Source of the DNA: Candidatus Latescibacterota bacterium | GTDB taxonomy: Bacteria; Latescibacterota; UBA2968; GCA-2709665 | DNA: 64,000 nt | Assembly: GCA_965237675.1 (NCBI GenBank) | Contig: OZ250150.1 | Location: 4,704,001 to 4,768,000 of the forward strand | Direction of reading: 5' to 3' | Program-made: the position numbers and the translations under genes | Notes under the pieces: generated by a model | Databases searched by the model: none | What the model was told of the DNA's origin: nothing | Seen by the model: only the letters and a program-made list of their open reading frames with translations | In this document: piece by piece, positions 4,566 through 45,466 of the stretch | Numbering within the stretch: position 1 is the stretch's first letter | Layout: each line of letters begins with the position of its first letter

Positions 4566-4650
4566 AGGTAACATCCTAGGCACCCGCAGGCCGTGTAGGC
4601 GTTTGCGCATCGAGGCGAAAGCCCCGTAGCCGTGGGTGCTGGTGTTACCT
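4566..4650 (-). other. attC-like site
   Basis: AGGTAAC...GCACCC...GGGTGC...GTTACCT. Confidence 0.8.
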
Positions 4651-4694
4651 GCCGTGTACGCTTAACGGATTTGGAGCCTGTGAGGACGAAGGGG

Positions 4695-5387
4695 TCAACC
4701 CACAGGCTTCACGAATTCGAGGACCATCAGGAATGGAATCGAATTCCCGCGATCTCGATTCAGGGCATTGGGGTCGGGGTTAATGTCTTTCAAGGATCTC
4801 AGAAGAAAGCCATTCTTCCCGAACACGTCGATGTATTCCTCCATCGTTCGGTGATAATAATATACCTCGACTCCCTTCCGCGCCAAACCCTGATAGATCA
4901 CTGACTCACCTGTGGCGAAGTAACGAGTGGCCTTCTCTCTCAGGACCGCCGAGTAGGGATTGTTGATGGAAAAAATCGCCCTCCCACCGCCGCGGCACAC
5001 AGCAGAGAGTGTGCGGACGAATCCTGCATAGTCGGGGACGTCATTCAACACGAGGTGAGAGGCGACGAGGTCGAAGGATTTCTCCAGGTCTGGCAGCGGT
5101 CTGCTGAGGTCATGGACCCTGTAGTCGATAGAATGATCAGGATCTTTCGCTCTTCCCAGTTCGACAAGCGGCGCACTGATGTCAATCGCACAGACTTCCG
5201 CTCCGCGACCTGCCAGGAGTCTCGCGACCAAGCCGTCGCCGCATCCCGCATCCAGGCAGCGAAGTCCCTGAACGTCACCGACGATGTCCAGGAATACAGA
5301 TAGTACAGGATCGCTGCCAACGTCCACATCTGAGACCATCGCCGAATACTGCTCGGCGAAGTCATCATAGGTGTTTCGATCGGTCAC
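4695..5387 (-). CDS. Class I SAM-dependent methyltransferase
   Basis: LDAGCGDG motif I. Confidence 0.85.
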   Translation of the reverse strand: MTDRNTYDDFAEQYSAMVSDVDVGSDPVLSVFLDIVGDVQGLRCLDAGCGDGLVARLLAGRGAEVCAIDISAPLVELGRAKDPDHSIDYRVHDLSRPLPDLEKSFDLVASHLVLNDVPDYAGFVRTLSAVCRGGGRAIFSINNPYSAVLREKATRYFATGESVIYQGLARKGVEVYYYHRTMEEYIDVFGKNGFLLRSLKDINPDPNALNRDRGNSIPFLMVLEFVKPVG

Positions 5388-5438
5388 TTCTTCAAGCCCT
5401 TCCGACTCCCGACAGGCCGGTCAAAGGCGGTGCAAGGC

Positions 5439-5528
5439 AGGAGACGTTTCGGTACCCCTGAACCGCAAGACGATTACCGAAGGCCAAAGCGCCCGAACGG
5501 CGCCGCAGCGCGAACCGACCGGTTATCG
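5439..5528 (-). other. attC-like site (left core degenerate)
   Basis: GGCAGGAGAC...GTTATCGGAC; both arms match the neighbouring cassette ends. Confidence 0.65.
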
Positions 5529-5538
5529 GACGTGTGCT

Positions 5539-5979
5539 CTACTTGCGAGCGTCCAATGACTCTACAAGTAGGTCAATCTTGTCGTCGTAATTGGCAACGA
5601 GCCTGGGAAGTGCCCGGACATTGGCCCAATAGAAATCGAATGGATGGATGAGAGTTCCGTCCTCCGAATGTTCTCCATGGCGCCAGGTTTCTTCTATGGG
5701 CCCGTCCACAGACAAATGAAAGAACCAGCGGCACTGCAGTTCATCACTCCCGCAATCCCGCATGTCGCGAGTATCCCGGGCGAGGAACCGTACATACCTG
5801 AGCCCCGTTAATCCCGTCTCCTCTTCTGCTTCTCGCATCGCCGCATCCTGAGGATTCTCTCCGGGCTCAATCGTTCCCGCGGGAACTTGAATGCCGGCCT
5901 CCGGCGCACCGGGTTGGGTGAAGAGGAGCAGGCGGCTCCCCCTCGTGATATAGGCGTAGGCTCTTTGACGGGTTTTCAT
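5539..5979 (-). CDS. NUDIX hydrolase
   Basis: GTIEPGENPQDAAMREAEEETGL Nudix box. Confidence 0.9.
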   Translation of the reverse strand: MKTRQRAYAYITRGSRLLLFTQPGAPEAGIQVPAGTIEPGENPQDAAMREAEEETGLTGLRYVRFLARDTRDMRDCGSDELQCRWFFHLSVDGPIEETWRHGEHSEDGTLIHPFDFYWANVRALPRLVANYDDKIDLLVESLDARK

Positions 5980-6015
5980 TGGAGTGGGGGTTAGAGAAAC
6001 CCTTGCCTCACATGT

Positions 6016-6062
6016 CCGATAAAATTCTCGGCACCCCCGAAGCCGGAGGCGCCGTGTTAACC
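6016..6062 (-). other. Short attC-like site
   Basis: CCGATAAA...CGGCACC...GGCGCCG-TGTTAACC. Confidence 0.6.
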
Positions 6063-6123
6063 GATGTGGAGGTCTGCCGGATCATCGTAGAGTTCAAGAG
6101 GCAATGATCGCCCCCTGATTTTT

Positions 6124-6429
6124 TCATTCATTTCCTGCCAGTACTTCTGACCAACGCCTGGCCATTGTCCACAATTCTTCCTCATGAACTGGCCAATCGT
6201 GGAGCGTGGAAGGATCAAAGTCAGCACCATTCGGCCAGACGAGTGCATGCACTTCAGAATCGATACGCACCTGATTAAAAAGCACTTCATCCATCAGAGG
6301 TCCGAACAACTCGCCCACAAGAACTGGTCGAAAATCGATAACCTGAGTCGTTTCATCGTTGAATCTGACACTGATCCGACGGGGCCCAACAATCTCAAAT
6401 GAAACGACTCGATAGATTGGATGACTCAT
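6124..6429 (-). CDS. DUF2442 protein (partner of DUF4160)
   Basis: GELFGPL...F...LVWPNGADFDP motif. Confidence 0.8.
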   Translation of the reverse strand: MSHPIYRVVSFEIVGPRRISVRFNDETTQVIDFRPVLVGELFGPLMDEVLFNQVRIDSEVHALVWPNGADFDPSTLHDWPVHEEELWTMARRWSEVLAGNE

Positions 6430-6440
6430 TCTATCCTCCC

Positions 6441-7002
6441 CTAATGAAGCGGATCGATCGGCAAGGGAGGATACCCGGATTGGAGCCGACCCCAATCTTC
6501 AAGTGGCTCCTCCTGATGCAACTCCGCCCAGGCTTCGACGAATCGTCGCTGACGGCGCTGCAATGCCCCTGCGATCAGTTCTATGTCATCCACAGCCACA
6601 ACTGTCCAAAATCTGCTTCGTTCTTGGACAACAGTGACATAAGGCAAAAAAGCTTATTTCGTGAACGACTGAATAGCTGCGAAAAACGCCAATATTTCGT
6701 ACGGACTGCAGACGTTTCTTCACCCACCCTTTGGCTTGTAGTCCTTCTGTGCCTTCTGTGCTTTTTGTGGCTATTGTCCCGCTCTACCAGTTTGCCGCGA
6801 AAAAACATTTGCCACAAAAGGCACAAAAACACAAAAGGTCACACGTGTCCGAAATCGGCTTCGTTCCTGGACAGCGGTGATCCACAGCGTAAACGGCAAG
6901 GTTATCGTGACAATAGGCATGAAAATTTGGCTGATAGCACTGTGTTCTCGGTTCGGCGAACATGCGAATGATGATTCCGAAAAACCGAGAAATTTCAGGC
7001 AT
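6441..7002 (-). pseudogene. DUF4160 protein split by a MITE
   Basis: MPEISRFFGIIIRM...AVYAVD joins in frame to DIELIAG...EAWAELHQ once the insert is removed. Confidence 0.8.
6597..6879. mobile_element. 283-bp MITE-like insertion
   Basis: 9-bp TSD ATCCACAGC (6588-6596, 6880-6888); terminal IRs CACAACTGTCCA / TGGACAGCGGTG. Confidence 0.8.
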
Positions 7003-7156
7003 CTGTTCTCATTTCGATATGGATTTTTTGGATGAAATCCTCCGGGAAATGTACCGAATTTCAAATGGACAAGCAAAATCCAAATTGGTAGGGATGGGAT
7101 TTTGCTGTTGCCCCTCAGAACTTCATCTACCAAAAACCCCTTCAATCCTCCATGTC

Positions 7157-7243
7157 CGCTAACGTCCGCCGGTTTGCGAACCCCGAGCCTGGGGAGAGGT
7201 TGCCGAAGGCCAAGGCGCAACAGCGCAAACCGCGCTGTCATCC
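7157..7243 (-). other. attC-like site
   Basis: CGCTAAC...GGTTTGCG...CGCAAACC...GTCATCC. Confidence 0.8.
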
Positions 7244-7819
7244 GACGTGAAGACAAACTATATGAGTATGTTTCGAAGCGCACCTAACGACGAAATAATC
7301 TGTACGCCATCTATACATGCTGTGCTGAAACCTGACTCAATATCAGAATTTTCGCTGCCAAAATCCCGGGCGGCCGGCTCGGTGCCCCTGCCTTTCCTAT
7401 CAATCAGAATTGGAGTCATTCCAATTGCTTTAGCACCTACGATGTCGTCCTCAACAGAATCGCCAATGAACGCAACGTCCTCGGCTACCATTCCAATCTT
7501 GTTCAGCGCCAGGGAGAAGATCCCTGAGTCAGGTTTTTTTGAACCTACCTCTCCCGATACTACAACAGCATCGAAATACTGCGTGAGTCCCAGTTCCCGT
7601 AGGCGACAATGCACATGGGGTGGATGATCGAAATTCGTGATTAGGGCCATTCGATGCGAGCCTCTCACATCATTCAGTAGGCTTTGGGCTTTAGGATCAG
7701 GAAAGGTGTGCCGTGACCAAGAGTCTACACTCCTTTCCGAAATGTCTGACATCTCTCGAGCTGTAAATTCGACTCCGAGCTGTTCTCCCAAAGCCCCAAT
7801 ACGTCGCTCATACAACGTT

Positions 7820-9633
7820 GAGTCCACTCCGAAAAGTCGAGTTTACTTATTGAGGAAAAAGTACTAAATTTCAAGGTGAGAAGAGGTTTCAAAGTTGCGG
7901 ACGTATAAAGGAAAAAGCGAGGGTATAGAATCAATGTATAAGAGAAGCGCGTCATGCAGCCAACCGGATCTGTTTTCGGGCTTCGAGTCGCATTTCAAGA
8001 GGCGCAAGCAGGACCAGTTGAATGATCCGAAGTCGTGGCATAATCTGTTTTACCAGCACGTCACGTCAAAGATAGAAGAGGATGTGTTTTCGGTGTTGTT
8101 TGATCCCAACCAAGGCCGCCCCAATGCGCCGATTCGTCACCTGGTGTCGATGATGATCTTGAAGGAGGGCTTTGGGTGGAGCGATGCCCAACTATTCGAG
8201 CATTGTCGGTTCAACATCCTGGTGATGCGGGCATTGGGGTTGATGAATCTATGCGATGAAGTGCCTGCGGAGTCCACGTATTATTTGTTCAAGCAGGCCT
8301 TGTATGCGGATCAACTCGAAGCCGGTCGAGATCTGATTGGAGAGACCTTTTCCAGCTTGACACAGACGCAGGCCAACGCCTTTGGTGTATTAGGTCAGCA
8401 CATCCGAATGGACAGTAAGTTGATCGGCTCTAACATTGCCCTGTGTTGTCGGTTGCAGTTGGTGGTGCGTTGCTTACAAGGGTTCTGGGGGTCGCTGGAC
8501 AAGGCCCAAAAGCGACGATCATCGGCAAAAAATCAGCAGGTTTTGGACGGATTGCTGAAGGTGAAGGCGCATCAGGTTGTCTATGGTCTCACCCGCGCTG
8601 AAAAGTGTGAGAAGCTGCAGGAATGCGGGCAGTTATTGAGCAGGCTTCAAGCGACCTATACCGACGAAGACAGCGGTCACTACGGTCTGATCGTGCGTGT
8701 TATGGGGGATCAATATACCGTTTTATCGTCCTCCAAACAGGTGCTTCCGAAGCCTCCTAAAGAGATCTCCTCATCCTCCTTGCAGTCTGCCGATGATGAA
8801 GATGCGACCTTTCGCAGGAAAGGGAAGGACAAGGTGAAAGGATACAGTGTCAACCTCACCGAGACCTGTGGTGAGGACGGCCTCAATTTGATCACGGACG
8901 TTGACGTCAAACCGGCGACGACGCCCGACAATGCGTTTGTACAAGCGGCCATCGAGCGGACGCAACAGGTCGTGGGTGACGCCTTGGAAGTGTCAATGGA
9001 TGGGGCCTATAATGATCAATCCAACGCCGAGTATGCAAAAGAACAGGACAAGCAATTCTATTACAGTGGCCTGCAAGGAACCCCAGGACGTTTCATTTAT
9101 GAACGCACAGAAGATGGCGTCACCGTCATCGATCAACAAACCGGAGAGGTTCACATAGCCCAAGAATACAAACCGGGAAAATACAAAATCATCATGGATG
9201 GCAAACCCCGATACTTTAAAGAACAGCACATCGACAATTACCTCAAACGCAAACAGATTGAAGCCCTGCCTGACCACATCAGAAACCGACGCAATAACGT
9301 CGAAGCCAGCATCTTTCAGTTGAGCTACTACACCAAAGATGGCAAGACGCGCTATCGCGGACTGAGGCCACACCAATTGTGGGCGCACTGTCGCGGCTTA
9401 TGGGTCAACCTCGTTCGGATCAAGAACTACCTCGCAACACCTCCGATGCTCCCCGCATAAGGGGGGGTTTCTTGCAAAAACCTCCATACCATAGGCCCTG
9501 AGCAACTTCGTAGGTTGCCCCTGAGTTGATTTGCCGCACCTACACGTTATATCGTCGCCACACGCTAAATCACAATACCCAACCCTGACCACTTACATCA
9601 GGCCTTTATAACCCCCGTTTTCGGAGGGGACTC
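7820..9633 (+). mobile_element. Insertion sequence (DDE; IS5/IS1182-like, family uncertain)
   Basis: TIRs GAGTCCACTCCGAAAA / TTTTCGGAGGGGACTC enclosing a transposase. Confidence 0.85.
7934..9460 (+). CDS. DDE transposase with DUF772-like N-terminus
   Basis: GRP..P.....MMILKE..GWSD; RMDSK; MDGAY; RNNVEA. Confidence 0.85.
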   Translation: MYKRSASCSQPDLFSGFESHFKRRKQDQLNDPKSWHNLFYQHVTSKIEEDVFSVLFDPNQGRPNAPIRHLVSMMILKEGFGWSDAQLFEHCRFNILVMRALGLMNLCDEVPAESTYYLFKQALYADQLEAGRDLIGETFSSLTQTQANAFGVLGQHIRMDSKLIGSNIALCCRLQLVVRCLQGFWGSLDKAQKRRSSAKNQQVLDGLLKVKAHQVVYGLTRAEKCEKLQECGQLLSRLQATYTDEDSGHYGLIVRVMGDQYTVLSSSKQVLPKPPKEISSSSLQSADDEDATFRRKGKDKVKGYSVNLTETCGEDGLNLITDVDVKPATTPDNAFVQAAIERTQQVVGDALEVSMDGAYNDQSNAEYAKEQDKQFYYSGLQGTPGRFIYERTEDGVTVIDQQTGEVHIAQEYKPGKYKIIMDGKPRYFKEQHIDNYLKRKQIEALPDHIRNRRNNVEASIFQLSYYTKDGKTRYRGLRPHQLWAHCRGLWVNLVRIKNYLATPPMLPA

Positions 9634-9639
9634 AAGTTT

Positions 9640-9834
9640 GAGTCCACTCCGAAAAGTGAGATTCGCGTGATTTTCTTCCAATTTGGATCAGGAACGGCCA
9701 TTTTCAACAAAAGCTATATCCCCATAAATCATTATATATCATAGTGTTATATCAAGTATGATTTTGATTTACTTCTGAGTGAAACACCAACTTGGACCTC
9801 GTCAGAGTGGATTTTGACTTTTCGGAGGAGACTC
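9640..9834. mobile_element. 195-bp MITE with the same TIRs as the adjacent IS
   Basis: GAGTCCACTCCGAAAAGT...ACTTTTCGGAGGAGACTC; outer 6-bp TSD AACGTT at 7814-7819 and 9835-9840. Confidence 0.85.
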
Positions 9835-10055
9835 AACGTTAGCTCTTTGGCGCCATCCATTGGGGGTTCCGGTTTGCTGAAGAATCCAGTGCAGATTGTT
9901 CGAAGGTAGTCTTTCTCGACCTTCACTCCAAATTCCGTCAGTGACTCACGGATGGAGTCAAACCACTCTTCCCAGGCCATCTTCATGTCCCCGTAAACAA
10001 GGATCGTACCATAAAGGTCAAAGAAAAGACCACTAAATCTGTGCGTTTTCATGTT

Positions 10056-10145
10056 GGATAACGTTCTGGCCACTTACGAACCCGCGCAGCGGGTTGCCAA
10101 TGGCCGAAGGAGTGTAGCGACAGAAGCGCAGAGGCGGTGTTAAAT
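10056..10145 (-). other. attC-like site
   Basis: GGATAAC...AACCCGCGCAGCGGGTT...GTTAAAT. Confidence 0.8.
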
Positions 10146-10228
10146 GACGGCAGCGCGCCCCAAAGGAGCGAAGCCGTAGAATGGCTGACATACAACGCAC
10201 ATCATTGGAGTATTGTCTTGCTCTGAAA

Positions 10229-10597
10229 TTATCCAGATACGACTCGATATGTTGAGTTGAATTTTGTGGAGCATCTTCCCTCTTTCAATAGCTTATCAGA
10301 GATCCTATGAAACGCGCCACGAATACATCTTGACCGCTCTGTTGGCGTTTTAGCATTGCCCCACCAGAACTCAATAGACGTGTCTGGATCCAAATTGTCA
10401 TGACTCTTACGGAGCGCGGCAATAGAATTCGCATGACCATTCTCTTTGACGTATTCTAAACAATCGGTAAAATCCAGGACGTCGCCGCTTTTTAAGCCCA
10501 CAGATTCTTGGTTAAGTTCGACCAGTGAATTCACGGAAACGCTGCTGTTCGTGGATCGTGTATTATTGTATATGATATCAGCCGCATGCTTGATCAC
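10229..10597 (-). CDS. Hypothetical protein (possibly a remnant)
   Basis: 122-aa ORF, no recognised motif. Confidence 0.4.
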   Translation of the reverse strand: MIKHAADIIYNNTRSTNSSVSVNSLVELNQESVGLKSGDVLDFTDCLEYVKENGHANSIAALRKSHDNLDPDTSIEFWWGNAKTPTERSRCIRGAFHRISDKLLKEGRCSTKFNSTYRVVSG

Positions 10598-10712
10598 TTG
10601 AGATACCGCCTTGTGTTACCACACATTGTGATTTGCGATGATATTGTTCTTTGTGCGCCATGAATCTGGGGTTGGGATGGCGGCGAGCATCGGGTTGGCT
10701 GATTCTCGCCTT

Positions 10713-11690
10713 TCAATCTATGCCTTCGATTGCAGCTTCGCCCATACGAATCGCCGCATGCGGGAGGGCGAGTATTCGGTCTTCCAGTTCCCAGATCTTC
10801 CGATTATGCGACTTTGGACCCCATTTCCGGTGGAGCTGACAAAGGCGCCTGGCATAGAAGGCAGCGAAGATGAGCGGGAGTGCGGTTCGTTCATCATCTG
10901 AGGGAGGCCGGACTGAGAAGTACCCCTCCACGAACCGCTGCATTTCCTCATCTGTAAGCTGTCGACCCACGGTCCCAATCAGCCATTGCATCCGGACCAT
11001 CACCACATCCACAAGCGCCGGAGCGAAGTGGGCAGAATTGAAGTCGGTGAACCTGACTTCACCTGAAGGGGAAGCAATCGTGTTCCTGCTTCGCACATCT
11101 CCGCGACAGAAGAGCCAACGAACGTTCATCTTGTTCGGCGTGTTATCCAGCTGTGCTCGAAGCCGGGTGACCGCATCTGCCGCGTTCGACGAGAACGTCG
11201 TCCTCTCGCAATACTCGAGAGCATCAGAGATGTACAGCCGCGCATCTTTGACTTCTGAACTGTAGACTGGAAAGTCTTCGCTCGCATCGTGAACCCGTGC
11301 GAGAGCCTCCCCCACGTTGCGGAGCGTATCGACGCGGTCTACAACCTCTCCTTCCAGGACGCTCTCGACCGAAATCACCAGGTCTCGAACGGATTTGCAG
11401 GGGCTGCCATCCGTGGTTGGAAGGATGTCAGGACACGGCGCGCCGCGATCAGAAAGGTGTCGAACGAACTCCACAATGGTTTTGGGGTGGGTCGAACCGT
11501 CCCATCCCGGATTTACGCGGAACACAACGCGTCCGTCCCGCAGACTGTCACAAAAGAAGACGCACCGTGAATTCGCCCTGCGGACTTTTGTTACTTTCAG
11601 ACCCCAGAATCGCTTGCAGAGTTCCGTGATCTCTCGCTGATCAGGCAGCGGGCCCGTTTCGTCTCTGGATCTGGGATAGAGGGCTTCCAT
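10713..11690 (-). CDS. Phosphotransferase (APH / homoserine kinase type II-like)
   Basis: LARVH...RGDVRSRN...FTDFN. Confidence 0.75.
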   Translation of the reverse strand: MEALYPRSRDETGPLPDQREITELCKRFWGLKVTKVRRANSRCVFFCDSLRDGRVVFRVNPGWDGSTHPKTIVEFVRHLSDRGAPCPDILPTTDGSPCKSVRDLVISVESVLEGEVVDRVDTLRNVGEALARVHDASEDFPVYSSEVKDARLYISDALEYCERTTFSSNAADAVTRLRAQLDNTPNKMNVRWLFCRGDVRSRNTIASPSGEVRFTDFNSAHFAPALVDVVMVRMQWLIGTVGRQLTDEEMQRFVEGYFSVRPPSDDERTALPLIFAAFYARRLCQLHRKWGPKSHNRKIWELEDRILALPHAAIRMGEAAIEGID

Positions 11691-11694
11691 AGGT

Positions 11695-11767
11695 TTTCCC
11701 GGCCCGGAACCGGTCGCATCGGTTGCGCGAAGGGCGCAAGCCCGAAGCCGTGGGCATGGTATTGGAG
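11695..11767 (-). other. Degenerate attC-like site
   Basis: AACCG...CGGTTGCGCGAAGGGCGCAAGCCCGAAGCC core shared with the sites at 18125, 21433 and 42619. Confidence 0.65.
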
Positions 11768-11779
11768 GCCATGCTCGAC

Positions 11780-12358
11780 TCAGATTTCCCAGTTCGACAC
11801 GTATGATCGGCTCTTGAGTCGCTCAGCAAGCTCAATCAATACAGATAGTGACTTGTTTAACCGGGCCGTAGTTGCGTCGTCGAGTTCGCCTCCCTCACCC
11901 CAATTATCGCCGTGGGCATACACATTATACGGGCTGACAATGCACTTGAAATCCAGCATAAGGGACGTTGCCAGCGACGCAAACGCCATATAGCTGTGCG
12001 GCAAGGCGCCCGAATTGACAAACATCACGATCTTGTCATAGAAAGCTCCTCTGAGCGATCCGCCTGGTGGCGTTGAACCTATGTACTCGACGAATTTCTT
12101 GAGCTCTGCGCAACACGCCCAGTTGTATACCGGACTGGCCAATATCACCGCATCGGATGCCGCAATGATCCTGTGGCACGATTGGTAAACCACGGATGAA
12201 TAGATTTCGTCGTCGTCGAAATTCGGCGGATCAAGTCGTCGAAGATCGATGAAGTCAACAGAAATGCCTCTGTCCTCCAGGGCGGTCCGACACATGGCGG
12301 CAAGATCCCTGCTGTGACTGTCCGCATTGAGGCTGCTGCTGACGACTGAAAATCTCAT
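11780..12358 (-). CDS. NADPH-dependent FMN reductase
   Basis: SSS....S.S; ASDAVILASPVYNW...ELKK. Confidence 0.85.
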   Translation of the reverse strand: MRFSVVSSSLNADSHSRDLAAMCRTALEDRGISVDFIDLRRLDPPNFDDDEIYSSVVYQSCHRIIAASDAVILASPVYNWACCAELKKFVEYIGSTPPGGSLRGAFYDKIVMFVNSGALPHSYMAFASLATSLMLDFKCIVSPYNVYAHGDNWGEGGELDDATTARLNKSLSVLIELAERLKSRSYVSNWEI

Positions 12359-12395
12359 TCTTGCACTTCCCCTTGATCGGCCCACTCCACATGGC

Positions 12396-12540
12396 CTGCA
12401 ACGGTCTCGCCGGCCGCGAACCGGGCCGGCTGGCACGGCTCGTATCCCGGTGGTTTTGATGAAGCAGGCGCCGTTACTGCGATAGGCAGGCCAGGTATGG
12501 AGGCGCGATTGCGCGGGAGCCGCAGCCCGGCGTGTTAGCT
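12396..12540 (-). other. attC-like site (long)
   Basis: CTGCAAC...GCCGGCCGCG...CGCAGCCCGGCGTGTTAGCT. Confidence 0.7.
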
Positions 12541-12569
12541 GGATTTGCCGCCCGGGTGACTCGTATCGA

Positions 12570-34015: not shown

Positions 34016-34025
34016 CTAAATGGCT

Positions 34026-36842: not shown

Positions 36843-36894
36843 GACGTGCGATACCCAAATTGTATCGCCCGCAACGTAACGCGGTTCGACACGT

Positions 36895-37254: not shown

Positions 37255-37457
37255 ACGTCCCTCGGGAACGAGACAGTCGTAGACACTCTGAAGGGGTCTT
37301 TCGTTTTATGTCCTTTCTTGAGGAAATCCAGTGCATGTCCAAAAGACATGGATATTATTGTCTTTGCTTTTGCCCCCTTTGATTTTCAAATCCTACCCCT
37401 CAAGCTTTTCGTCCGTAACGGGTGGAATTGAACGCAAGAAACTTAATTGAAACAGTA

Positions 37458-38108
37458 CTAAGTTTGCATAAGTTCATGGATCAGCGGTGCGACCTGACGG
37501 ATATCGGTCAGTTGCCGCAGGGCACCGGTGAAGTCCAGGCCGCGCGTCAGGCCCTGCGGTATGACGATGCAGCGCAGCCCGGCCGCCAGTGCGGCGCGCA
37601 GCCCCCGGTCCGAGTCTTCGATTACGACGCATTCGGCGGCGCTAAGGCCGTTTTGCCGCATGGCCGTGAGGTAGGGCTCGGGGTCGGGCTTGGAATGCCG
37701 GTAGTCTTCGCGCACGAGCGTGAAATCGATGCAGTCCAGCAGGCCGGTGGCGGCGTGGATGATCTCAAAGTGCTCCCGCCGCGAACTGGTGACGATGCCC
37801 ATGCGCACCGTGCCGTGGAGTTGGCGCAGCACCTGGCGGGCGCCGTCGATGACGGGTACACCGGCGCGCAAGAGTTCGGTGTAGCGGGCGTTGCGCCAGA
37901 TGCGGGCGGGCTCCAGCGCCTGTTCGTCTATGCGGTGTTCGGCGGCGATCCTGGTAAGGCCTTCGCTGGCCTTGAGGAAGAGCTCAATGAAACGGGCTTC
38001 GCTCAGGCGGACGCCGAGGCGTTCCAGGGTTTCGCGGCAGGCCTGGAAGTACAGGCCTTCGGTGTCGACCAGGACGCCGTCGTTGTCCCAAAGAATGGCT
38101 TTCAGCAT
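37458..38108 (-). CDS. HAD-IA phosphatase (beta-PGM-like)
   Basis: WDNDGVLVDT; KPDPEPY; IEDS..G. Confidence 0.9.
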   Translation of the reverse strand: MLKAILWDNDGVLVDTEGLYFQACRETLERLGVRLSEARFIELFLKASEGLTRIAAEHRIDEQALEPARIWRNARYTELLRAGVPVIDGARQVLRQLHGTVRMGIVTSSRREHFEIIHAATGLLDCIDFTLVREDYRHSKPDPEPYLTAMRQNGLSAAECVVIEDSDRGLRAALAAGLRCIVIPQGLTRGLDFTGALRQLTDIRQVAPLIHELMQT

Positions 38109-38223
38109 GGCGCTTTATTTCCTTTTCGCCGCTTCGCATAACGGCCTGTTAACCGCTGGCAGCCCCATCACGGCGAAGCCTATCACGGGCAGAGATAAAG
38201 CGCGCACCATCAGGCTTCTGATT

Positions 38224-38979
38224 CTACATGACCGGCCTGAATCTGGCTTGAAGGATCCTTTTGGCTGACAACTCACCAAAAGGCGCACCACAACACCTGA
38301 CATCCTCCACAACCTTGTGGTAATCGTAACTTAATCTGTGGTTTTCCACAAGCCATTCCTGCCCATCCCACCACACTCTGGCATATCCAACTTGATGATC
38401 CCCATCAAACGGAAACCCAACTGAATCAATGATGCTATATCGCTGACCGCACGGAACGCCATAGGACGCGTAGTGAAGGTGTCCTGCCACAATCAGATTG
38501 GCCTTCGCATCCCCCAGCAATGTCCTGGCTTCCTCTTCTGGAGTAACCGTCCGAAGACTGAACGGAACAGGTTGAAGAACCAATACACCGGTCACATCAG
38601 TAGGCGTTGCGTGCACAATGAGAAGATCATCCTCCGGAGACTGCCCTCCTGGTGGCGTTATCCTGTACTCAAAGGGCAGACCCTTCAGATAGCTCACGCC
38701 ATCTGTTCCCAGCTTCTCTCTCACCCAGTCCAGTCTTTCCTCGGAATACTGTTCATCAAAGACCAACAGGTCTGTGTTCCCGTAAATCGTGGGAGCGCCC
38801 AGATTTCGTATTGCGTCAAGACTCTCGACCGGGCGGGGTCCGCTCAGCACCAGGTCGCCAGCGACCACCAGACGATCATAGGGTTGGCTTTGCAGATCCT
38901 CAAGAACAGCGTTGAGTGCAGCGACGTTGCCGTGAATATCTGCAATTACCGCAACTGAATATGACAGGGAATCATTCAT
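38224..38979 (-). CDS. Metallophosphoesterase
   Basis: DIHGN; GDLV; GNTD; GHLH. Confidence 0.9.
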   Translation of the reverse strand: MNDSLSYSVAVIADIHGNVAALNAVLEDLQSQPYDRLVVAGDLVLSGPRPVESLDAIRNLGAPTIYGNTDLLVFDEQYSEERLDWVREKLGTDGVSYLKGLPFEYRITPPGGQSPEDDLLIVHATPTDVTGVLVLQPVPFSLRTVTPEEEARTLLGDAKANLIVAGHLHYASYGVPCGQRYSIIDSVGFPFDGDHQVGYARVWWDGQEWLVENHRLSYDYHKVVEDVRCCGAPFGELSAKRILQARFRPVM

Positions 38980-39093
38980 TTCACATCTCCAAAATTTCGA
39001 GATGGCGGGGAGTGGTTCTTGCGCGCTTTCAGTTTTTGCCGCTTATCGTTCGCGCCCGCGGGAAACCCTCCCGCAACGAGTCAAAGATCTTGC

Positions 39094-40407
39094 TCATATT
39101 CGGCCCCCTTCGGGTACCTCGCGCCCGCCGTCCCAGACGCCTGGCTTGTCGGTCCCCGTCGGCCAGTACCCGTCGGCGTCTTCATCCCATTGGTTTCCGC
39201 ACAGCGACGAGATGATGGTCCATTCCGCCGCCCCGAAATCCGGCTCGGGATGGTATAGGAAGCGCTTCAACCCCGCCTCCTGCGAAGCAGTCAGGATGCC
39301 GTAGAGATCGCGCGCCTGCATCGGGTCGCCGCCGTGAGGGCGGCGACCCGTGGACACCCAGGCTATCACCTTGTCGGGATCACCTATGGCCGCCAGGGCC
39401 CGCCGAGTCTCGTTGTAGACCACCTTGGAGAAGAATTCGTCGGGGAAACCCATCTCCATGTCCATAAGCGAGTTGACGCCAGGCAGCTCGATGCCCAACA
39501 GCGCCTTCACTACGGCGAAACACTCCGCCTCGCTCAGGGACGGATTCCACTTTCGCAATCGTCTTACCCAGCGGGATATGGTTCCGTACATGCCGTCCAT
39601 GCCGCGGTGCCAAAAATAGTGTTTCGGAAAGATATAGTCGAAATACTCCGCCATCTGACAGTAATTCTGTCCGGTGAGCGATGACCACGACACGGCCCGC
39701 GGGATACCGCCCAGCTCCACCTTGCGATCGACGGCGTCGACCTGTTGCCGCATGTACTGCCAGTCGAAGCGAGAGAGCTCCTGCCGCTTGCGCAGCCAGT
39801 AGAGCACGTCCTCGTTGACGTCGAACAGGAGCATTGCCCCCAGCATCCCCCCGTCGGCGTGGTACCGCACCATTTCCGGTGTCAGATTGTGCAAACGCTC
39901 CCGAAAGTGGGTGATGCCGCGTTGTATTCGATCCATCTCGGCGCCGACCTGGGCGAAGCGGCCCTCCTCACCCGGACGTATCTCCAGGAGCTCGCCCCCA
40001 TGGTGGAAGGCCAGCTCGTAGTGGTTTTCGCCCGGACCGTCGACAATGACGCCGTGCACCTGTGGAAAGGCGTTCATTTGGTCCTGCACGTGGGAGGTCG
40101 GGCCGCCTCCGGCGAATATCAGGAGTTGCCAGCCCCGCTCCGCGGCGTTGTCCAGCATTGCGTGCAGCTTCTTCTCTTTTGAGAGGTCGCGCGGACGCTG
40201 CTCCGGGACTTCCGCCCCCAGGGCCTCGTACACCTTCGGGTCGGGAGCCCACGCCGGAATGGTGGTGCCATCCTCCTGGAGGAATGCCATGCGGCCGACG
40301 GCCAGACCGCGCACGCCGCCATCCTCCCAGGCGTCGAACCGCTCCTCGAACCCGTCGAGCCAGTGTTCGAACGGGCTGTCACTGCAGGTGAATACCCAGA
40401 GTTTCAT
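39094..40407 (-). CDS. Conserved hypothetical protein (paralog of 26075-27451)
   Basis: Extensive shared sequence blocks. Confidence 0.8.
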   Translation of the reverse strand: MKLWVFTCSDSPFEHWLDGFEERFDAWEDGGVRGLAVGRMAFLQEDGTTIPAWAPDPKVYEALGAEVPEQRPRDLSKEKKLHAMLDNAAERGWQLLIFAGGGPTSHVQDQMNAFPQVHGVIVDGPGENHYELAFHHGGELLEIRPGEEGRFAQVGAEMDRIQRGITHFRERLHNLTPEMVRYHADGGMLGAMLLFDVNEDVLYWLRKRQELSRFDWQYMRQQVDAVDRKVELGGIPRAVSWSSLTGQNYCQMAEYFDYIFPKHYFWHRGMDGMYGTISRWVRRLRKWNPSLSEAECFAVVKALLGIELPGVNSLMDMEMGFPDEFFSKVVYNETRRALAAIGDPDKVIAWVSTGRRPHGGDPMQARDLYGILTASQEAGLKRFLYHPEPDFGAAEWTIISSLCGNQWDEDADGYWPTGTDKPGVWDGGREVPEGGRI

Positions 40408-40440
40408 TTTTCCCTCCTTTGGGGTAGTAGGGGCGATTTC

Positions 40441-40544
40441 CGTTAACGGCCTCGCGATATCCGACGTTGCCGGAGCGTAGCGGAGGTAATGTGCCCGGAG
40501 GGCCGAATGACCGAAGGGAGTGTAGCGGGCATCGCGTGTTAAGC
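40441..40544 (-). other. attC-like site
   Basis: CGTTAAC...CGCGAT...ATCGCG-T-GTTAAGC. Confidence 0.8.
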
Positions 40545-40760
40545 GTCCGTGTTGTTTTTTGTCATCAGGAATGGAATAAAGGAGCGGACATCACTTTCTC
40601 TGTTTTTCCGGCTTTTCTGCTTTTCAACAAGAAGATTACTGTTGTACCGATTCCTCGCCAGATAGCAACTGACGGAGGTCTATGTTGATATATTCGATAT
40701 GCAGTCGAAACCAACGGATCGACACTGAATCTGAATTGTACCTTCCAACAGAATCTCCCT

Positions 40761-40895
40761 GTTCTCGGCACCCGCAAACCTGCCGAGCCATCGCGAATGC
40801 AGTCAACGGATCCCCATAGTTGCAGACCAGCTACGCGGGCGGCAGGTTTCAGCGCAGGCGCGAACACGCCGACGCCACGGGTGCTCGTGTTAGCT
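40761..40895 (-). other. attC-like site (left core lost)
   Basis: GCACCCG...CGGGTGC-TCGT-GTTAGCT. Confidence 0.7.
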
Positions 40896-41084
40896 GCTGT
40901 TTGCGACTTGGAGGGCACCCCGCAAAAGGTCCGATGTCAGAAAAGGGTGAGTGGTGTTATATTCTTCCTGAAAAAGATAGGTGGAAATCCGCCCTTCTCC
41001 AAATTTTCTGTCACCTTTCCGAACCTGAATGACACTTTGTATCGAAGGACTTCGAGCGAATTCTTCTTGGTGAAGGAACATTGC

Positions 41085-42550
41085 ATGCAGTCAAGTTTTG
41101 ACCTTTTCAGAGCTGCCTCCGAAGGTGACCCGACGAAGCGGCATGCCGCGTTTGAGTGTCTGGTACGTCAGTTTCAAGACCTGGCATACGGATGCGCGTA
41201 CGGGATTTGGGTAATTTTCATCTCGCTCAGGACGCTTCACAGGATGCGTTCCTTACCGCGTACACCGAGCTCGGAAAACTGGAAGCTCCCGAGGCGTTTC
41301 CCGGATGGTTTAAACGAACTGTGATACGGAAGGCACTCCGCCTTAGCCAGACTCGCCGTTTCGTGTTCGAGCCGATTGAGGTAGCATTGAGCGTTTCCAC
41401 AGACGGTCCGGACCAGATGGAACAGATAGAGACTCAGGAAACGCAGTCGTTGGTTCACGCGGCTATCGAGGCTCTCCCTGAGCACGAGCGGAGTGTCACG
41501 GTACTGTTCTAATTGACTGAATACTCTCAAAAGAAGATCGCCGAATTCTTGGACCTGTCGCTGCCAACGGTGAAGTAACGGCTACAGAGGTCCCGGAAGC
41601 GGCTTGAGGAAAGGATAATAAGGATGGTGGATGATACGCTTGAGGGCCATCGGCCTTCCAGAGACGATAGATTCGCCAACGAGGTGGTGGAGATAATTCG
41701 GGCGACAGAAGCGGGCGATCTTTCCAAACTCGCAGCTCTCCTGGCCCGCAACCCAGGTCTAGTCGATTCTAATGCACCTCTGTCAGACTCGTATCCCGTA
41801 CAGGCAAGGGGCTGGAAACCTTTGCATATAGCAGCTTGGCACGGTCATACAAAGGCCGTTGAGTTTCTCCTTGAACAAGGAGCGAAAATTGACGCTCCGT
41901 GCGGATCGAACCGGACACCGCTCCATTACGCAATCGAAGCGGGAAGTCAGGAAACCCGGCAACTACTGTTAGATAAGGGGGCAGATGTCGACATTACGAT
42001 TGCGTCCATACTAGGTATGACGGACCGAGTGAAGGACTTGCTTGCAAAAGATCCCAAACTGGCGAATGACAGTTCCAAGGGGCATACTCCGTTGGAGTGG
42101 GCTGCTTGGGGCGGGAGAGTTGATGTAGCCCGGATTCTGTTGGAACACGGAGCCAAGATTCGAGGAGAGGCCATATTCATCCCAGCGGCCAACGGAAGTG
42201 TGACGTTCCTCCGCTTTCTATTGGATCATGGCGCAGACCCCAATGCCCGATCCGGAGGTCGAAATGACGCTCCTCAGTTTGACCATACCGTGCTCCACGC
42301 GGCTGTCAGGATGCCATTCACCAGCGACAACACAGGAGTGATAGAGCTACTGATAGAGCGCGGTGCGGACGTGAATGCGTTGGACGAAGCGGGTAGGACG
42401 CCTTTGGATCGCGCGCTCGAGAAGGGGGCCGATGGGCCGTATACCGCAAATCCCCATGAAACATCGAATGAGCAGAAGGAATACGACAAGATCATCGCTC
42501 TGTTTGGTAAACACGGAGGGAAGACAAGCGAAGAGCCTCTATCGGCTTAG
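41085..42550 (+). pseudogene. ECF sigma-70 factor fused to ankyrin repeats; sigma part disrupted (ankyrin ORF 41624-42550 intact)
   Basis: AQDASQDAFL, FPGWF, IAEFL...TVK motifs; frameshift near 41205 and stops at 41510 and 41576; TPLH ankyrin repeats. Confidence 0.85.
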
Positions 42551-42575
42551 TCAGAAGAGAATGCAATCGAAAACT

Positions 42576-42603
42576 GGCGGTCCCAGTGCGGGGCCGCCTT
42601 TTT
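42576..42603 (+). terminator. Rho-independent terminator
   Basis: GGCGGTCCC-AGTGC-GGGGCCGCC-TTTTT after the ankyrin gene. Confidence 0.7.
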
Positions 42604-42618
42604 ACTGTCGCAAATTGC

Positions 42619-42701
42619 AGCTAACGTCTCCGCCGTGCCCGAACCACGAAAGCGGTTGCGCGAAGGGCGTAAGCCCGAAGCCGGGCACGGACGTGTTAGG
42701 C
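42619..42701 (-). other. attC-like site
   Basis: AGCTAAC-7nt-CCGTGCCCG...CGGGCACGG-4nt-GTTAGGC. Confidence 0.9.
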
Positions 42702-42790
42702 GGCGTTGCTGTTTTATATCTCAGCCCAGGAATACCCAATCTTGCCGGCTGAGAGGTACTATTCCCCAAGCTGCGAGAAGTTCGCGTCCC

Positions 42791-43603
42791 TCATGTTCGA
42801 TACTCCAAAAGCAGCTTCTCACACGATGCATCCTTCTCTGCGTTACGTTGTTTACGCGCAACGCCCCAGAAGTGCTTTACCATCTTGGAGGAAAGAATAA
42901 AGTGCAGCCCATGCGTCTTCATGACTTGGGTCGCCAGTCCCATCGTGTCGTACACTTCTCCTCCTCCGCTTTCCTCAAAGTCGACACAAGAGAACCCAAT
43001 CTCACGAGCCGTCAGCAAGAAAGCTTCTGTGTTCATGATTAGACAGCACGATGGGTGCATACGGTCACCCAGGACGGCGGGCATGGGAAGGTGCTCAAGA
43101 GCTTTCCCTGGCTGGACGTCTTCAATATCGTCCTCCATCATGATATTGATGAACTTTTCCGCCCCACCCTCGTCAAGGGAGCCCCACGGCACCTCAGTTT
43201 CCCCGTCTTCTGTGAATCTGGCCTGAATAGCCCAGACATCATCTCCCGCCTCAGCTAACTCGCTTGCCATCGTTGTCACAGTCTCATCCTGGACAAAAAC
43301 AATATCGGCGTCCAAAAAGAGAAAATAATCACAGTCCTGATGCGCAAGAACAAAGTCACGGAGATTCTCACCGTGATTGTTGCCAGGCGTGTTGCGGTCC
43401 CACTTTGTTTGCACGATTGGGATCACCTTGTCCTCAGCGAGAGACGTCCAATGCTGCATCTCATCGGTTGAATTGTTGTCCAGAATCGTCAGGCGGATCC
43501 CATCAAGAGCACTGTGTGTCGCGTACAGCGATCTCAGCAAAAGCTCAACAAAACAAGATGTGTCTTGGTTGATCGTGACTGCCTCGATGTGGTGTGTAGG
43601 CAT
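42791..43603 (-). CDS. GT-A (family 2-like) glycosyltransferase
   Basis: ILDNNSTD; FLFLDADI. Confidence 0.75.
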   Translation of the reverse strand: MPTHHIEAVTINQDTSCFVELLLRSLYATHSALDGIRLTILDNNSTDEMQHWTSLAEDKVIPIVQTKWDRNTPGNNHGENLRDFVLAHQDCDYFLFLDADIVFVQDETVTTMASELAEAGDDVWAIQARFTEDGETEVPWGSLDEGGAEKFINIMMEDDIEDVQPGKALEHLPMPAVLGDRMHPSCCLIMNTEAFLLTAREIGFSCVDFEESGGGEVYDTMGLATQVMKTHGLHFILSSKMVKHFWGVARKQRNAEKDASCEKLLLEYRT

Positions 43604-43633
43604 CTGATGTCTCCGGAGACGGGTTGCAATGCC

Positions 43634-43723
43634 GCCTAACGTTTCCGCTGTGTGCGAACCTGCCGCAGGCAGGTTGGGTCGGAGGGAGCGTAGCGACCGC
43701 AGCCGCACACGGACGTGTTAGCC
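43634..43723 (-). other. attC-like site
   Basis: GCCTAAC...TGTGTGCG...CGCACAC...GTTAGCC. Confidence 0.9.
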
Positions 43724-43882
43724 GGTTGTGCCGTTTTAGGGTATCGGTAAAGCCATAACGGGGCCGACATAACCTTCTTTTGTCTTTCTTGATTTTGACC
43801 TCCAAAAACTTCCAAGATAAAATAAATCGGCGGTATTAAGTCAAACCGCCGAGGTGGAGAGTTGCTTTTTCTTCTCAATGAG

Positions 43883-44152
43883 CTACAGAAAAAAGAAACT
43901 TCCCACACAGGCCGTAACTTTGACAATACTGTAGAGAAATTCAGGTGCGAAGTCGGCTTCATTCTTCCACATTATCGTATGTAGGTCAGGGTGAACTCGG
44001 AATTTCTTGAATTCCTCTTTATCCTTCAACGACTCAAAAACGGGACCCCATAGTTCATCTTTCAACTCTACCTCTCCCTCCACACCATCACTGAATTTGA
44101 GCCAGATCACATAGTCGCCTACATAGTGAGCTTCAATAACACGGGGTATCAT
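43883..44152 (-). CDS. DUF2442 protein (stop mutated, 8 aa longer than copy 2)
   Basis: GPVFE.L...W.NEADFAPE. Confidence 0.85.
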   Translation of the reverse strand: MIPRVIEAHYVGDYVIWLKFSDGVEGEVELKDELWGPVFESLKDKEEFKKFRVHPDLHTIMWKNEADFAPEFLYSIVKVTACVGSFFFL

Positions 44153-44156
44153 CTTC

Positions 44157-44414
44157 TCACTCCAAGGGTGCAATTTTATTCAACGGACGACGCTGGTCTG
44201 CGCGTTCCCAATTCTCCATCAGTTCTCTTTGGTGCAGATCATACCATTCCAGAACATGCCTCAGAGCCCGTCTAGGAAATTGGCCTGTCACAACGCCTGT
44301 CTCAATATCGACCGTGATGTCATATTCACCGTATGTGGCGTGAAAATGGGGTGGTCCGTGCTCACGATAAAACATACCAATCACGATCCCAAGAAAACGA
44401 CTAATCTCCGGCAT
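44157..44414 (-). CDS. DUF4160 protein (putative toxin)
   Basis: MPEISRFLGI...EHGPPHFHA...EL.ENW. Confidence 0.9.
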   Translation of the reverse strand: MPEISRFLGIVIGMFYREHGPPHFHATYGEYDITVDIETGVVTGQFPRRALRHVLEWYDLHQRELMENWERADQRRPLNKIAPLE

Positions 44415-44536
44415 AATTATATTTTACAATAATTTATAGGAAAATGCAACTACTTAATGACTTGCGCTTCAGGGTAGGGCTGGGGTTGTTTTTTGCCCCC
44501 TTTTCGATAAGGAATCAGACAAAAAAACGGCATGGC

Positions 44537-44679
44537 GGCTAACGGTCAAGCACCCACGAACCTGCCAAGCTGGCGCGGCGCTTGCCCCTCGCGATTTTCT
44601 TCAAGCAAGCGCCGTGACAGCGACAGGCAGGTTGCGCGGAGGCGCGGACGCGCCGAAGCCGGGGGTGCCGTTGTTATGC
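44537..44679 (-). other. attC-like site (long)
   Basis: GGCTAAC...GCACCC...GGGTGC...GTTATGC. Confidence 0.85.
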
Positions 44680-44801
44680 GAATCTGGCGCGGTCCCTTTC
44701 TGGCGAAGCCCTCATAGGGCCAGCGTAGAGCGGGCAACGATATCAGGTTTGTTGTGGCTGTTCCCCGAATCAGAATCAGCTGCGAAATGGTTCCGAAGTC
44801 T

Positions 44802-45254
44802 CTATCCCTCTCCAGAGTAGCCCAAAATACGCCTGAGGCGTTGCAACAAGGGTAATGTGATAGGATCCTTCAGCGCCAATGAATCCCAGGTGGTAGGTGT
44901 TCGCAGATCGAACCACCCAGTCTCTGCAATAGTGGTATGATCTGCGGTGTCGACTTCAGGTTCAATTCCTGGCTGAGGTTCTCCGGAAACAACTCGACAC
45001 CTATACGTTTTCTGCCACTCATATATCGTGTCATAAACAGGCGCCTGCTCGTCAAGGATCATCGAATCTACTTCGACACAAAGGTGCGTCTCTTCGAGCA
45101 CTTCACGCCGAATACACTCTTCCTCCGTTTCGTTCGGCTCTCGGGCTCCACCCGGGATCACCCAGAAGGTTTCTCCGGTGCCTCGATCGTTGACTTTCAG
45201 CAAAAGTAGACGATCGTCTGCAACTATTGCCGCCTGATAGCGAATGGCAGGCAT
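44802..45254 (-). CDS. NUDIX hydrolase
   Basis: PGGAREPNETEEECIRREVLEET. Confidence 0.9.
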   Translation of the reverse strand: MPAIRYQAAIVADDRLLLLKVNDRGTGETFWVIPGGAREPNETEEECIRREVLEETHLCVEVDSMILDEQAPVYDTIYEWQKTYRCRVVSGEPQPGIEPEVDTADHTTIAETGWFDLRTPTTWDSLALKDPITLPLLQRLRRILGYSGEG

Positions 45255-45390
45255 CCTTGGTCCTCTCCTGGAGACAGAGTAAAGTGCATAAGAGGTTTCA
45301 CGTGACTTTCAGCGCAAGGGTGGTCTGGGTTTGATCTTGCCCGCCTTGACAAGGGGTGGGTGGATGCGGTTCCTGCTCTGCGCCAGTTTC

Positions 45391-45466
45391 GCATAACGTG
45401 CTTGATGTGCGAAGCCGCCGCAGGCGGTTTGGGCGAACGTAGTGAGCCGCACATCTTTTGTTAACG
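45391..45466 (-). other. attC-like site
   Basis: GCATAAC...GATGTGCG...CGCACATC...GTTAACG. Confidence 0.85.

Follow-up and report, generated by a model that had tools for sequence, protein, structure and literature searches.

We analysed a stretch of 64,000 nucleotides from a Candidatus Latescibacterota bacterium (assembly GCA_965237675.1, contig OZ250150.1, positions 4,704,001 to 4,768,000 of the forward strand; the whole stretch is referred to below as the window), which probably carries a large chromosomal cassette array of an integron-like system distinct from the classical integron, with an adjacent Xer-like tyrosine recombinase and, in most cassettes, a stem between the two ends that would stabilise the excised circle. 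Integrons are the textbook bacterial gene-capture system, and in this array the integron logic of cassettes, folded sites and a G/TT crossover (between the G and the TT of GTT) appears to run with a recombinase devoid of the insertion of integron integrases and with differently marked sites.

Cassette ends pair with each other in the window

The genes between approximately 4.5 and 53.7 kb of the window are mostly single, unrelated to one another and encoded on the - strand, and are separated by hairpin sites of 70-150 nt which on the + strand start with ...TAAC and end with GTTA.... Each cassette, read on the - strand, begins at the TT of the G/TT crossover and finishes with its own folded site. 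Where the ends pair, the initial 15-20 nt of a cassette are complementary to a stretch of 15-20 nt immediately outside the AAC box of its own site, and these two arms lie 0.4-4.6 kb apart in the array. The sites were located with a covariance model (R1) of 15 inner hairpins from which the outer flanks were excluded; as the sites were defined without their outer arms, the test of outer-arm pairing is independent of the site definition. The structure of R1 was written by hand because RNAalifold run on the site alignment gave the inner stem alone. R1 yielded 24 matches in the window at E<0.01, all on the + strand and all bearing the triplets AAC and GTT around an inner stem that covaries, i.e. 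attC-like imperfect palindromes, and a few degenerate sites and three attI junctions were added to the site list by hand. Generic hairpin detection (AAC...GTT with constrained folding) proved too noisy, with approximately 15 true sites among 47, and covariance models were used in its place, while an inverted-repeat listing of the window consisted mostly of chance pairs and the ends of insertion sequences (IS).

In order to measure the outer stem, the 24 nt outside each AAC or GTT were taken, the 7-bp core was replaced by a fixed perfect core and the energy was derived from the other 17 nt. Cognate arms, namely the GTT arm of one site and the AAC arm of the next site to the right, gave -8.96 kcal/mol (n=27) against -5.04 for non-cognate arms (n=866; Mann-Whitney p = 7.7e-7) and -5.08 for the two arms of the same site (n=28). 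The original prediction for this DNA, made from its letters, had proposed precisely this rule of pairing, and cognate energies are far better than random, with none of 20000 permutations of partners reaching the observed mean; the four arm pairs that it quoted are all present, with exact match counts. The cognate partner ranked first to third of 32-33 in 18 of the 27 cassettes, and 14 of the 27 lay below the 5th percentile of non-cognates. The stems S14/S15 (outer-stem energy -14.8) and S26/S27 (-13.2) each ranked 1 of 33, and several stems hold an internal loop that an ungapped count does not see, for instance 43717/44543 and 45460/47749. Complementarity beyond the core had been ascribed to each cassette, which holds for most intact cassettes, being clear in 18 of 27, but not for the remaining nine. 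The array also extends beyond the span 4644 to 45397 first given for it, to the attI junction at 53707.

There is next to no probability, in our estimate, that these pairs reflect chance, a palindromic consensus shared by the sites or the terminal inverted repeats of transposons. The elements GTTA/TAAC, G8 and G11/T11 are common to all sites, so that 6 of the first 11 positions pair whichever two arms are combined, but non-cognate and same-site combinations stay at background and the permutation tests refute such an origin. One long pair (7817/9837), which we rejected as a pair of cassette ends, is indeed the terminal repeat of the IS at 7814-9840; in the cassettes, by contrast, one arm is internal to the unit, beside the hairpin, rather than terminal. 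The two arms of one site in the array pair at the random level and pairing is limited to the two ends of one cassette, so the stem makes sense once those ends have been joined.

Anatomy of the stem in related arrays

Of 22 genomes of the same family, 19 contain R1-type sites, and at E<=1e-6 so do 58 of the 151 genomes sampled from the phylum. The analysis of pairing was extended to six arrays from four other genomes in three genera (the relatives), which together provide 94 adjacent-site pairs. Here cognate arms gave -10.88 kcal/mol (n=94), non-cognate arms -5.41 (n=1706) and same-site arms -5.55 (n=101), and the observed mean was reached by 0 of 5000 permutations in five of the arrays and by 9 of 5000 in the sixth. 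Ungapped stems of at least 12 bp were present in 63 of the 94 pairs, many of them 16-21 bp long.

These 63 stems share a common anatomy. Positions 1-4 are GTTA/TAAC, position 8 is a G in all 63, forming a G-C pair, and position 11 is a G.T wobble in 55 with a Watson-Crick pair in just 5, while position 10 is mismatched in 19. At positions 5-7, 9 and 12-20 all four bases occur, each with its matching partner on the other arm, and the stem typically continues past the wobble by 5-9 pairs that covary freely. The conserved arm pattern is GTTANNNGNNG / TNNCNNNTAAC and the RYYYAAC / GTTRRRY pattern of classical R boxes is not followed. Because the bases at 8 and 11 are invariant, the choice of arms makes no difference to pairing there; at positions 5-7 and 9, on the other hand, the Watson-Crick fraction is 0.79-0.88 for cognate arms (0.84-0.88 at positions 5-7) versus 0.32-0.45 for same-site arms. 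The GTT arms in the window, counted by eye, carry G at position 8 in 27 of 28 and at position 11 in 21 of 28.

The bottom strand and its folding

Many mismatches in the stems had been noted as G-T compatible, which holds. In 13 ungapped stems of at least 10 bp in the window the positions beyond 7 comprise 98 Watson-Crick pairs, 15 G.T, no A.C and 3 other combinations on the strand represented by the model, and the ratio of G.T to A.C, 15:0 here, is 69:9 in the relatives (binomial p ~1e-12). The model strand is opposite the longest open reading frame (ORF) in 82 of 95 cassettes and, lying opposite the genes, corresponds to the bottom strand that is folded and cut in classical integrons. Since a wobble that reads G.T on the bottom strand reads A.C on the top strand, the folded bottom strand would be what selection acts on.

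These counts also bear on two further explanations of the complementarity. If it were a fading relic of how cassettes originated, for example by hairpin copying, and not selected, one would expect some stems to have decayed, as some have, and the 9 of 27 window cassettes without pairing would be no surprise. Decay predicts equal numbers of G.T and A.C, however, and would hardly preserve a wobble at one position in 55 stems out of 63 or a G-C pair that never varies at position 8, nor would it account for the recurrence of the wobble in other phyla, and we regard a relic as very improbable. Still less credible is pairing within the cassette RNA, whereby the 5' and 3' untranslated regions would stabilise or terminate the transcript: both arms do lie outside the reading frames, but the gene strand reads A.C and not G.U, the arms flank a DNA crossover and the pairing tracks cassette units rather than transcription units.

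Whole sites were also folded together with their arms, both as re-formed in silico in the circle and as they lie in the array. The circle form reached -31.4 kcal/mol compared with -26.4 for the array form (n=26, Wilcoxon p = 1e-4), a gain in stability of 5.0 kcal/mol, and the bottom strand of the circle form was 3.4 kcal/mol more stable than its top strand (n=26). Selection on single-strand folding, also part of the original prediction, is supported by covariation of the two arms across unrelated genes and five genomes, by the G.T to A.C bias and by the use of the non-coding strand, and, judging from these sequences, it is the folded bottom strand that is under selection.

Crossover point and attI junctions

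The G/TT crossover that is a feature of integrons was found here through duplicated cassettes, three attI junctions and contigs that break at AAC, with the first bases of a cassette matching its own R''. One recombinase-proximal sequence abuts a different cassette at each of the three positions 27786, 53707 and 56150; a shared fixed sequence that meets different cassettes marks these as attI-type junctions and the array as being read on the - strand, as is the recombinase gene. The two copies of the DUF4160/DUF2442 cassette are identical up to the AAC at 44543, beside a site, and at 56150, beside attI, and then diverge, and the PhyH cassette copies behave in the same way at 21439 and 48961. 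Among public runs, a contig of run X16 matches up to 53707, where site-like letters replace attI; pieces from X17 and X20 break off at 53707 as well, while the record goes on for another 26 letters; and in run X1 the cassette is still joined to attI. In natural populations, neighbours change exactly at AAC.

Several joints in these runs were discarded. Those with short sides of 20-27 letters (for example 43675>47804, 42699>47739 and 40446>42629) are matches between similar sites and were not counted, and the 'go-back' joint 48964>42650 in X16, considered as a circle, was rejected as it is the second copy of the PhyH cassette.

In the attI-type region (53708-53834, repeated at 27787-27943 and 56151-56308) the letters AAC-AGTT are enclosed by a 7-bp inverted repeat, ATTACCG...CGGTAAT, and there are also two TACGG direct repeats; it is possible that the inverted and direct repeats are binding sites of the recombinase. 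A variant of the crossover triplet was seen at the S8 cassette, where GAT...ATC shows both sides changed; the same variant is present in another genus (genome G021, array G021b, site 4171393), and two more window sites have ATC for AAC (18131 and 39047). Such triplet changes require a matching partner site, according to the available portion of Frumerie et al. 2010.

A recombinase without the IntI insertion

The best family matches of the recombinase next to the array are XerA-type, XerC and XerD, with a one-piece alignment to XerA. It aligned with VchIntIA (2a3v) in two pieces, 27 aa facing 69 aa in the integrase, and when four array-linked copies were aligned with three classical IntIs a 41-aa gap appeared as 25 + 6 + 10 missing residues; the missing segment is the one with the ALER...EWGW motifs of classical integrases. 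All seven aligned sequences agree at the catalytic residues R, K, H, R, H and Y. The recombinase scored 214 bits with TIGR02249 against a cut-off of 265 and 218.6 with NF040815 against 220, and the archaeal XerA model scored it about as well as the integron-integrase model. An IntI-specific additional domain around patch III is defining for integron integrases (Ghaly et al. 2022, in the part available). By its sequence, the recombinase is without the IntI insertion and outside the definition of an integron integrase.

A classical comparison was drawn from 401 genomes of another class, 147 of which have an integrase above the TIGR02249 cut-off (this tally includes four unpublished genomes, none of which was used); the DNA beside 12 of these integrases was taken, and a classical attC model (R2) was built from 12 typical sites of three genomes. 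Within the Latescibacterota, no gene exceeded the TIGR02249 cut-off in the genomes of this family that were searched, and those above it occur in 15 of 151 genomes of the phylum, all in other families. R1-type sites were at most 5 kb from insertion-less recombinase genes wherever both were listed, while around four classical IntI genes of the same phylum 96.7 kb gave 0 R1 matches and 3 matches to the classical model. R2, for its part, recovered 68 sites in the DNA next to classical IntI genes and none in either the window or 145 kb of R1 arrays. The two types of site and the two types of recombinase pair mutually exclusively.

In the window and several other genomes the recombinase gene points into the array, and in some genomes of the phylum it points away from the R1 array, as in classical integrons; these orientations were seen from the coordinates of G554, G478, G498 and G001. 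More cassette-like DNA lies to the right of the recombinase, at 54.9-56.1 kb.

Comparison with classical integrons and other systems

Like classical integrons, the system consists of arrays of mostly single-gene cassettes in the same direction, with folded imperfect palindromes bounded by AAC and GTT, a G/TT crossover and an attI beside a tyrosine recombinase; the bottom strand folds better and the first bases of a cassette pair with its own R'' box. Unlike them, the recombinase here has no IntI insertion and its gene points into the array, the outer stem reaches 15-20 bp rather than 8-12 bp, and a fixed G8-C and a G.T at position 11 occur without the RYYY/RRRY pattern. The surplus of unpaired bases is also placed differently. 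Here it falls on the AAC (R') arm of the bottom strand, which is the cleaved arm, in 81 of 88 sites, whereas 39 of 64 classical sites have equal arms and the surplus otherwise falls on the top-strand 5' arm (19 versus 6), the classical extrahelical bases being those of the R''-L'' arm (Bouvier et al. 2009, PMC2727003, in the text available).

Some pairing of cassette ends exists in classical integrons too. In 58 classical cassettes from seven arrays cognate arms gave -4.28 kcal/mol versus -2.54 for random pairs (p = 6e-9), the stems had a median length of 8-9 bp and, apart from a single one of 18, did not exceed 12-13. Watson-Crick pairing, at 72% for position 8, was down to 29% by position 12 and no better than background thereafter. 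This agrees in kind with the available portion of Bouvier et al. 2009 (PMC2727003), where most classical cassettes pair with themselves past the 7-nt boxes to 9-11 consecutive nt, while the R box is handled as 7 bp in that of Loot et al. 2017. The stem described here is approximately twice as long as this extension and has a conserved wobble at a fixed place, and the gain over random pairing is approximately 5.5 kcal/mol as against 1.7 in classical cassettes. Measured against the 7-bp integron core that the original prediction took as its yardstick, the pairing is indeed longer, but classical cassettes already reach 8-12 bp and the system in question is not classical.

Clusters of attC sites without an integron integrase (CALINs) have been described (Cury et al. 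2016, PMC4889954, in the part available), and the array resembles these in that none of its genes passes an integron-integrase model. It differs from them in its sites, which are of another type, and in the neighbouring recombinase, which is of a different type and recurs beside such arrays. The available text of Smyshlyaev et al. 2021 (PMC8138268) describes an 'integron-like' subgroup of simple tyrosine recombinases, and in that text, in contrast to our arrays, the insertion-less members are not ascribed cassette arrays or folded sites.

Single-strand hairpin readers are otherwise known among IS200/IS605 TnpA and REP/TnpA-REP, which are HUH nucleases and build no cassette arrays; like these, a fixed irregularity in the folded strand could serve here to tell the strands apart. 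Xer proteins, for comparison, act on double-stranded dif-type sites. A literature search combining attC, integron and wobble returned one unrelated paper, and for Latescibacter, integron and attC no paper with all three was found. Nor was a paper linking Latescibacteria to integrons found, and in the parts of the literature available insertion-less IntI relatives were mentioned only as a sequence subgroup. The principle of extended end pairing is known; its length, the fixed wobble and the invariant G-C are undescribed in the literature found.

A proposed model for excision and re-insertion

On the reading which we favour, namely an integron-like system whose stem stabilises the excised circle, arms of 15-20 nt would come to flank the site upon excision and joining of the ends, and the R-box stem would grow from a few pairs to 15-20 bp. 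The enzyme would be the adjacent Xer-like tyrosine recombinase, acting on the folded bottom strand, and positions 1-11 would form its binding arm; the arm of a Xer site is 11 bp in length. Classical integron integrases use their insertion to read extrahelical bases, and in this system the fixed wobble and a bulge of approximately 3 nt on the cleaved arm may replace such bases in signalling strand and polarity, while pairs 12-20 would stabilise the hairpin of the excised cassette. Since half of the 11-bp arm and the whole of the further stem would be swapped at each recombination, a fully paired site would exist only in the excised cassette. The circle site would thereby be a better substrate than the hybrid sites of the array, favouring re-insertion and keeping the array quiet. 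If true, there would be a built-in difference between the substrate for insertion and those for excision, and the proposal that the excised cassette holds a better site than the array is directly testable. Two natural solutions to the choice of strand in single-stranded recombination could then also be compared.

The same arms could instead act before excision, the bottom-strand arms pairing within the array, looping out the gene and bringing the two sites together. As the arms are the same, the pairing statistics fit this equally well and the strand bias suits any role of the bottom strand; it is also compatible with a role in the circle, and the present data fit both. The arms are, however, 0.4-4.6 kb apart, so that a loop of this size is far less favoured than a stem beside the hairpin of a circle, and we consider pairing before excision unlikely.

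Several points weigh against a stem that serves the circle of an integron-like system run by the adjacent enzyme. We saw neither excised circles nor circle junctions nor products of recombination; the runs available publicly were contigs, which are blind to rare forms. The recombinase is linked to the sites through adjacency alone, both orientations of recombinase and array occur in the phylum and the co-directional layout is no rule, and the roles given to the wobble and to pairs 12-20 are ones that we infer. The window recombinase matches its closest homologue (P0001, 97% identical) only from residue 107: the first ~60 codons of its ORF (54647-54836) are unmatched and the homologue has 106 different N-terminal residues, so that this copy may be truncated or have a rearranged 5' end, and the array may be frozen in the strain analysed. 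No special pairing was seen for S5-S6, S7-S8, S10-S11, S11-S12, S12-S13, S19-S20, S21-S22 and S23-S24, and weakly for S4-S5, most of these nine cassettes having degenerate, truncated or probably missing sites, several genes, or an IS. The relatives are not independent samples, and some cassettes recur across their arrays. Finally, the distinction from classical sites includes the absence of any match among these sites to R2, which is a small classical attC model of our own and not that of IntegronFinder.

Occurrence beyond the phylum

The recombinase family is very large, with members named XerD, tyrosine recombinase or 'site-specific tyrosine recombinase/integron integrase'. R1 gave 0 matches around distant homologues (61 loci, 925 kb) and a direct-repeat search in loci L022, L023 and L028 revealed no arrays. 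We also used a scan without any sequence model, which accepted a GTT arm and an AAC arm separated by 150-3000 nt if 11 or more of the 12 positions 4-10 and 12-16 formed Watson-Crick pairs. Applied to 80 loci (989 kb; Clostridia, Bacteroidota and others) it gave 50 arm pairs, 41 of which have A.C at position 11 on the recombinase strand, i.e. G.T on the bottom strand, compared with 10 pairs, 1 of them with A.C, in the reversed-sequence control. In the printed loci with at least 2 pairs nearly all pairs were downstream of the recombinase gene; for several of these loci, approximately 50-130 nt separate the gene from the first arm pair.

The window, the relatives, the Clostridia and the Bacteroidota have in common a recombinase of this family, end pairing of approximately 15 bp and the mark at position 11, A.C on the top strand and G.T on the bottom. 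We tentatively raise the possibility, to which we give somewhat less than an even chance, of a second widespread gene-capture family parallel to integrons, which would include Latescibacterota and, going by the mark at position 11, Clostridia and Bacteroidota, and in which a plain Xer-like enzyme reads the wobble and the bulge of the cleaved arm on folded single strands. If true, cassette arrays in several phyla would have gone unnoticed or been classed as orphan arrays. Arrays of this kind seem to be widespread and to have been overlooked.

In many Bacteroidota drafts the homologous recombinase gene is within ~1 kb of a contig end (L064-L068, L071, L075, L078, L080 and others). Recombinase genes near contig ends are to be expected where repeated downstream sites break assemblies.

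Gene content and organisation of the array

The cassette genes encode methyltransferases, NUDIX and HAD hydrolases, kinases and toxin-antitoxin pairs, and many belong to no family. The array is interrupted by IS copies, truncated sites and a duplicated attI with a recombinase fragment, and the PhyH, Kelch and DUF4160/DUF2442 cassettes are present in duplicate. Features and arms are listed in Table 1.

Table 1 Coordinates of the array, its recombinase, attI junctions, insertion sequences and paired cassette arms in the window
Feature	Coordinates	Strand	Remarks
Cassette array	4566..53707	-	From attI junction at 53707 leftwards to last site 4566-4650
Xer-like tyrosine recombinase	53835..54836	-	Co-directional with cassettes; stop codon 127 nt from junction 53707
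attI-like junction	53698..53834	-	First cassette start (...GGCTGCTAAC, ending 53707) meets 127 nt of recombinase-proximal sequence
Second attI junction (AAC ends at 27786)	27772..28180	-	With recombinase 3' fragment 27944-28180
Third attI junction (AAC ends at 56150)	56127..56566	-	With recombinase 3' fragment; adjoins second DUF4160/DUF2442 cassette copy
Four consecutive end-paired cassettes	4644..10062	+	4644/5445, 5522/6023, 6056/7163, 7237/10062; extents 16, 15, 17, 18
Arm of S8 (14805-14898), GAT for GTT	14892..14908	+	Pairs with 15871-15887 ending ATC; 15 Watson-Crick and 2 G.T of 17
GTT arm of S14 (21433-21516)	21510..21528	+	Pairs with 22460-22478 (AAC arm of S15); mid-stem G.T pairs
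GTT arm of S15 (22472-22559)	22553..22570	+	Pairs with 23179-23196 (AAC arm of S16); 15 Watson-Crick and 2 G.T of 18
GTT arm of S16 (23190-23341)	23335..23349	+	Pairs with 27772-27786 at second attI junction, 14/15, across IS-holding cassette
GTT arm of S17 (29010-29092)	29086..29101	+	Pairs with 29894-29909, AAC arm of truncated S18, 15/16; HigB/HTH (helix-turn-helix) cassette
GTT arm of S24 (40801-40895)	40889..40907	+	Pairs with 42607-42625, 17/19; G.T at position 11
AAC arm of S25 (42619-42701)	42607..42625	+	Partner of 40889-40907
GTT arm of S25	42695..42709	+	Pairs with 43626-43640, AAC arm of S26 (43634-43723), 14/15; G.T at position 11
GTT arm of S26	43717..43737	+	Pairs with 44524-44543 (AAC arm of S27); 8 bp, internal loop, 9 bp
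GTT arm of S27 (44537-44679)	44673..44690	+	Pairs with 45380-45397, 17/18
AAC arm of S28 (45391-45466)	45380..45397	+	Partner of 44673-44690; on the - strand, 5' end of NUDIX cassette
GTT arm of S30 (48955-49065)	49059..49068	+	Pairs with 53698-53707 at attI junction, 10/10, then bulged continuation
IS, DUF772 transposase (7895-9460)	7814..9840	+	22-25 nt terminal inverted repeats; inside a cassette
IS, DDE_Tnp_1_4 transposase (49236-50600)	49152..50843	+	Inside first cassette

The IS with the DDE_Tnp_1_4 transposase has three copies in the window, the others being around 24183-25547 and 32571-33935. The first cassette, from S30 to 53707, occurs in an IS-free form in runs X17, X20 and X1, with the joint 49151>50844, sides of 217-255 letters and 4 shared letters. 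The IS at 7814-9840 is contained in the cassette 7237/10062.

Toxin-antitoxin modules are frequent in large chromosomal integrons, and cassettes of this type were noted at 17622-18075, 21796-22281, 29129-29811 and 43883-44414, comprising a small two-gene pair, a PIN protein, HigB with its HTH partner and DUF4160/DUF2442. The window gave no match to an Rfam family. A second small cluster of R1-type sites is present in the same genome (G000:C1:1408325-1412291), distant from the array. The site remnant at 38136-38154 has its AAC and GTT 5 nt apart, the inner hairpin having been deleted and both outer arms kept. Two sites are adjoined by a conserved stretch of approximately 80 nt (10150-10228 and 29980-30049), a repeated part of a cassette, and each copy is followed by a small ORF without a family (10229-10597 and 30050-30370).

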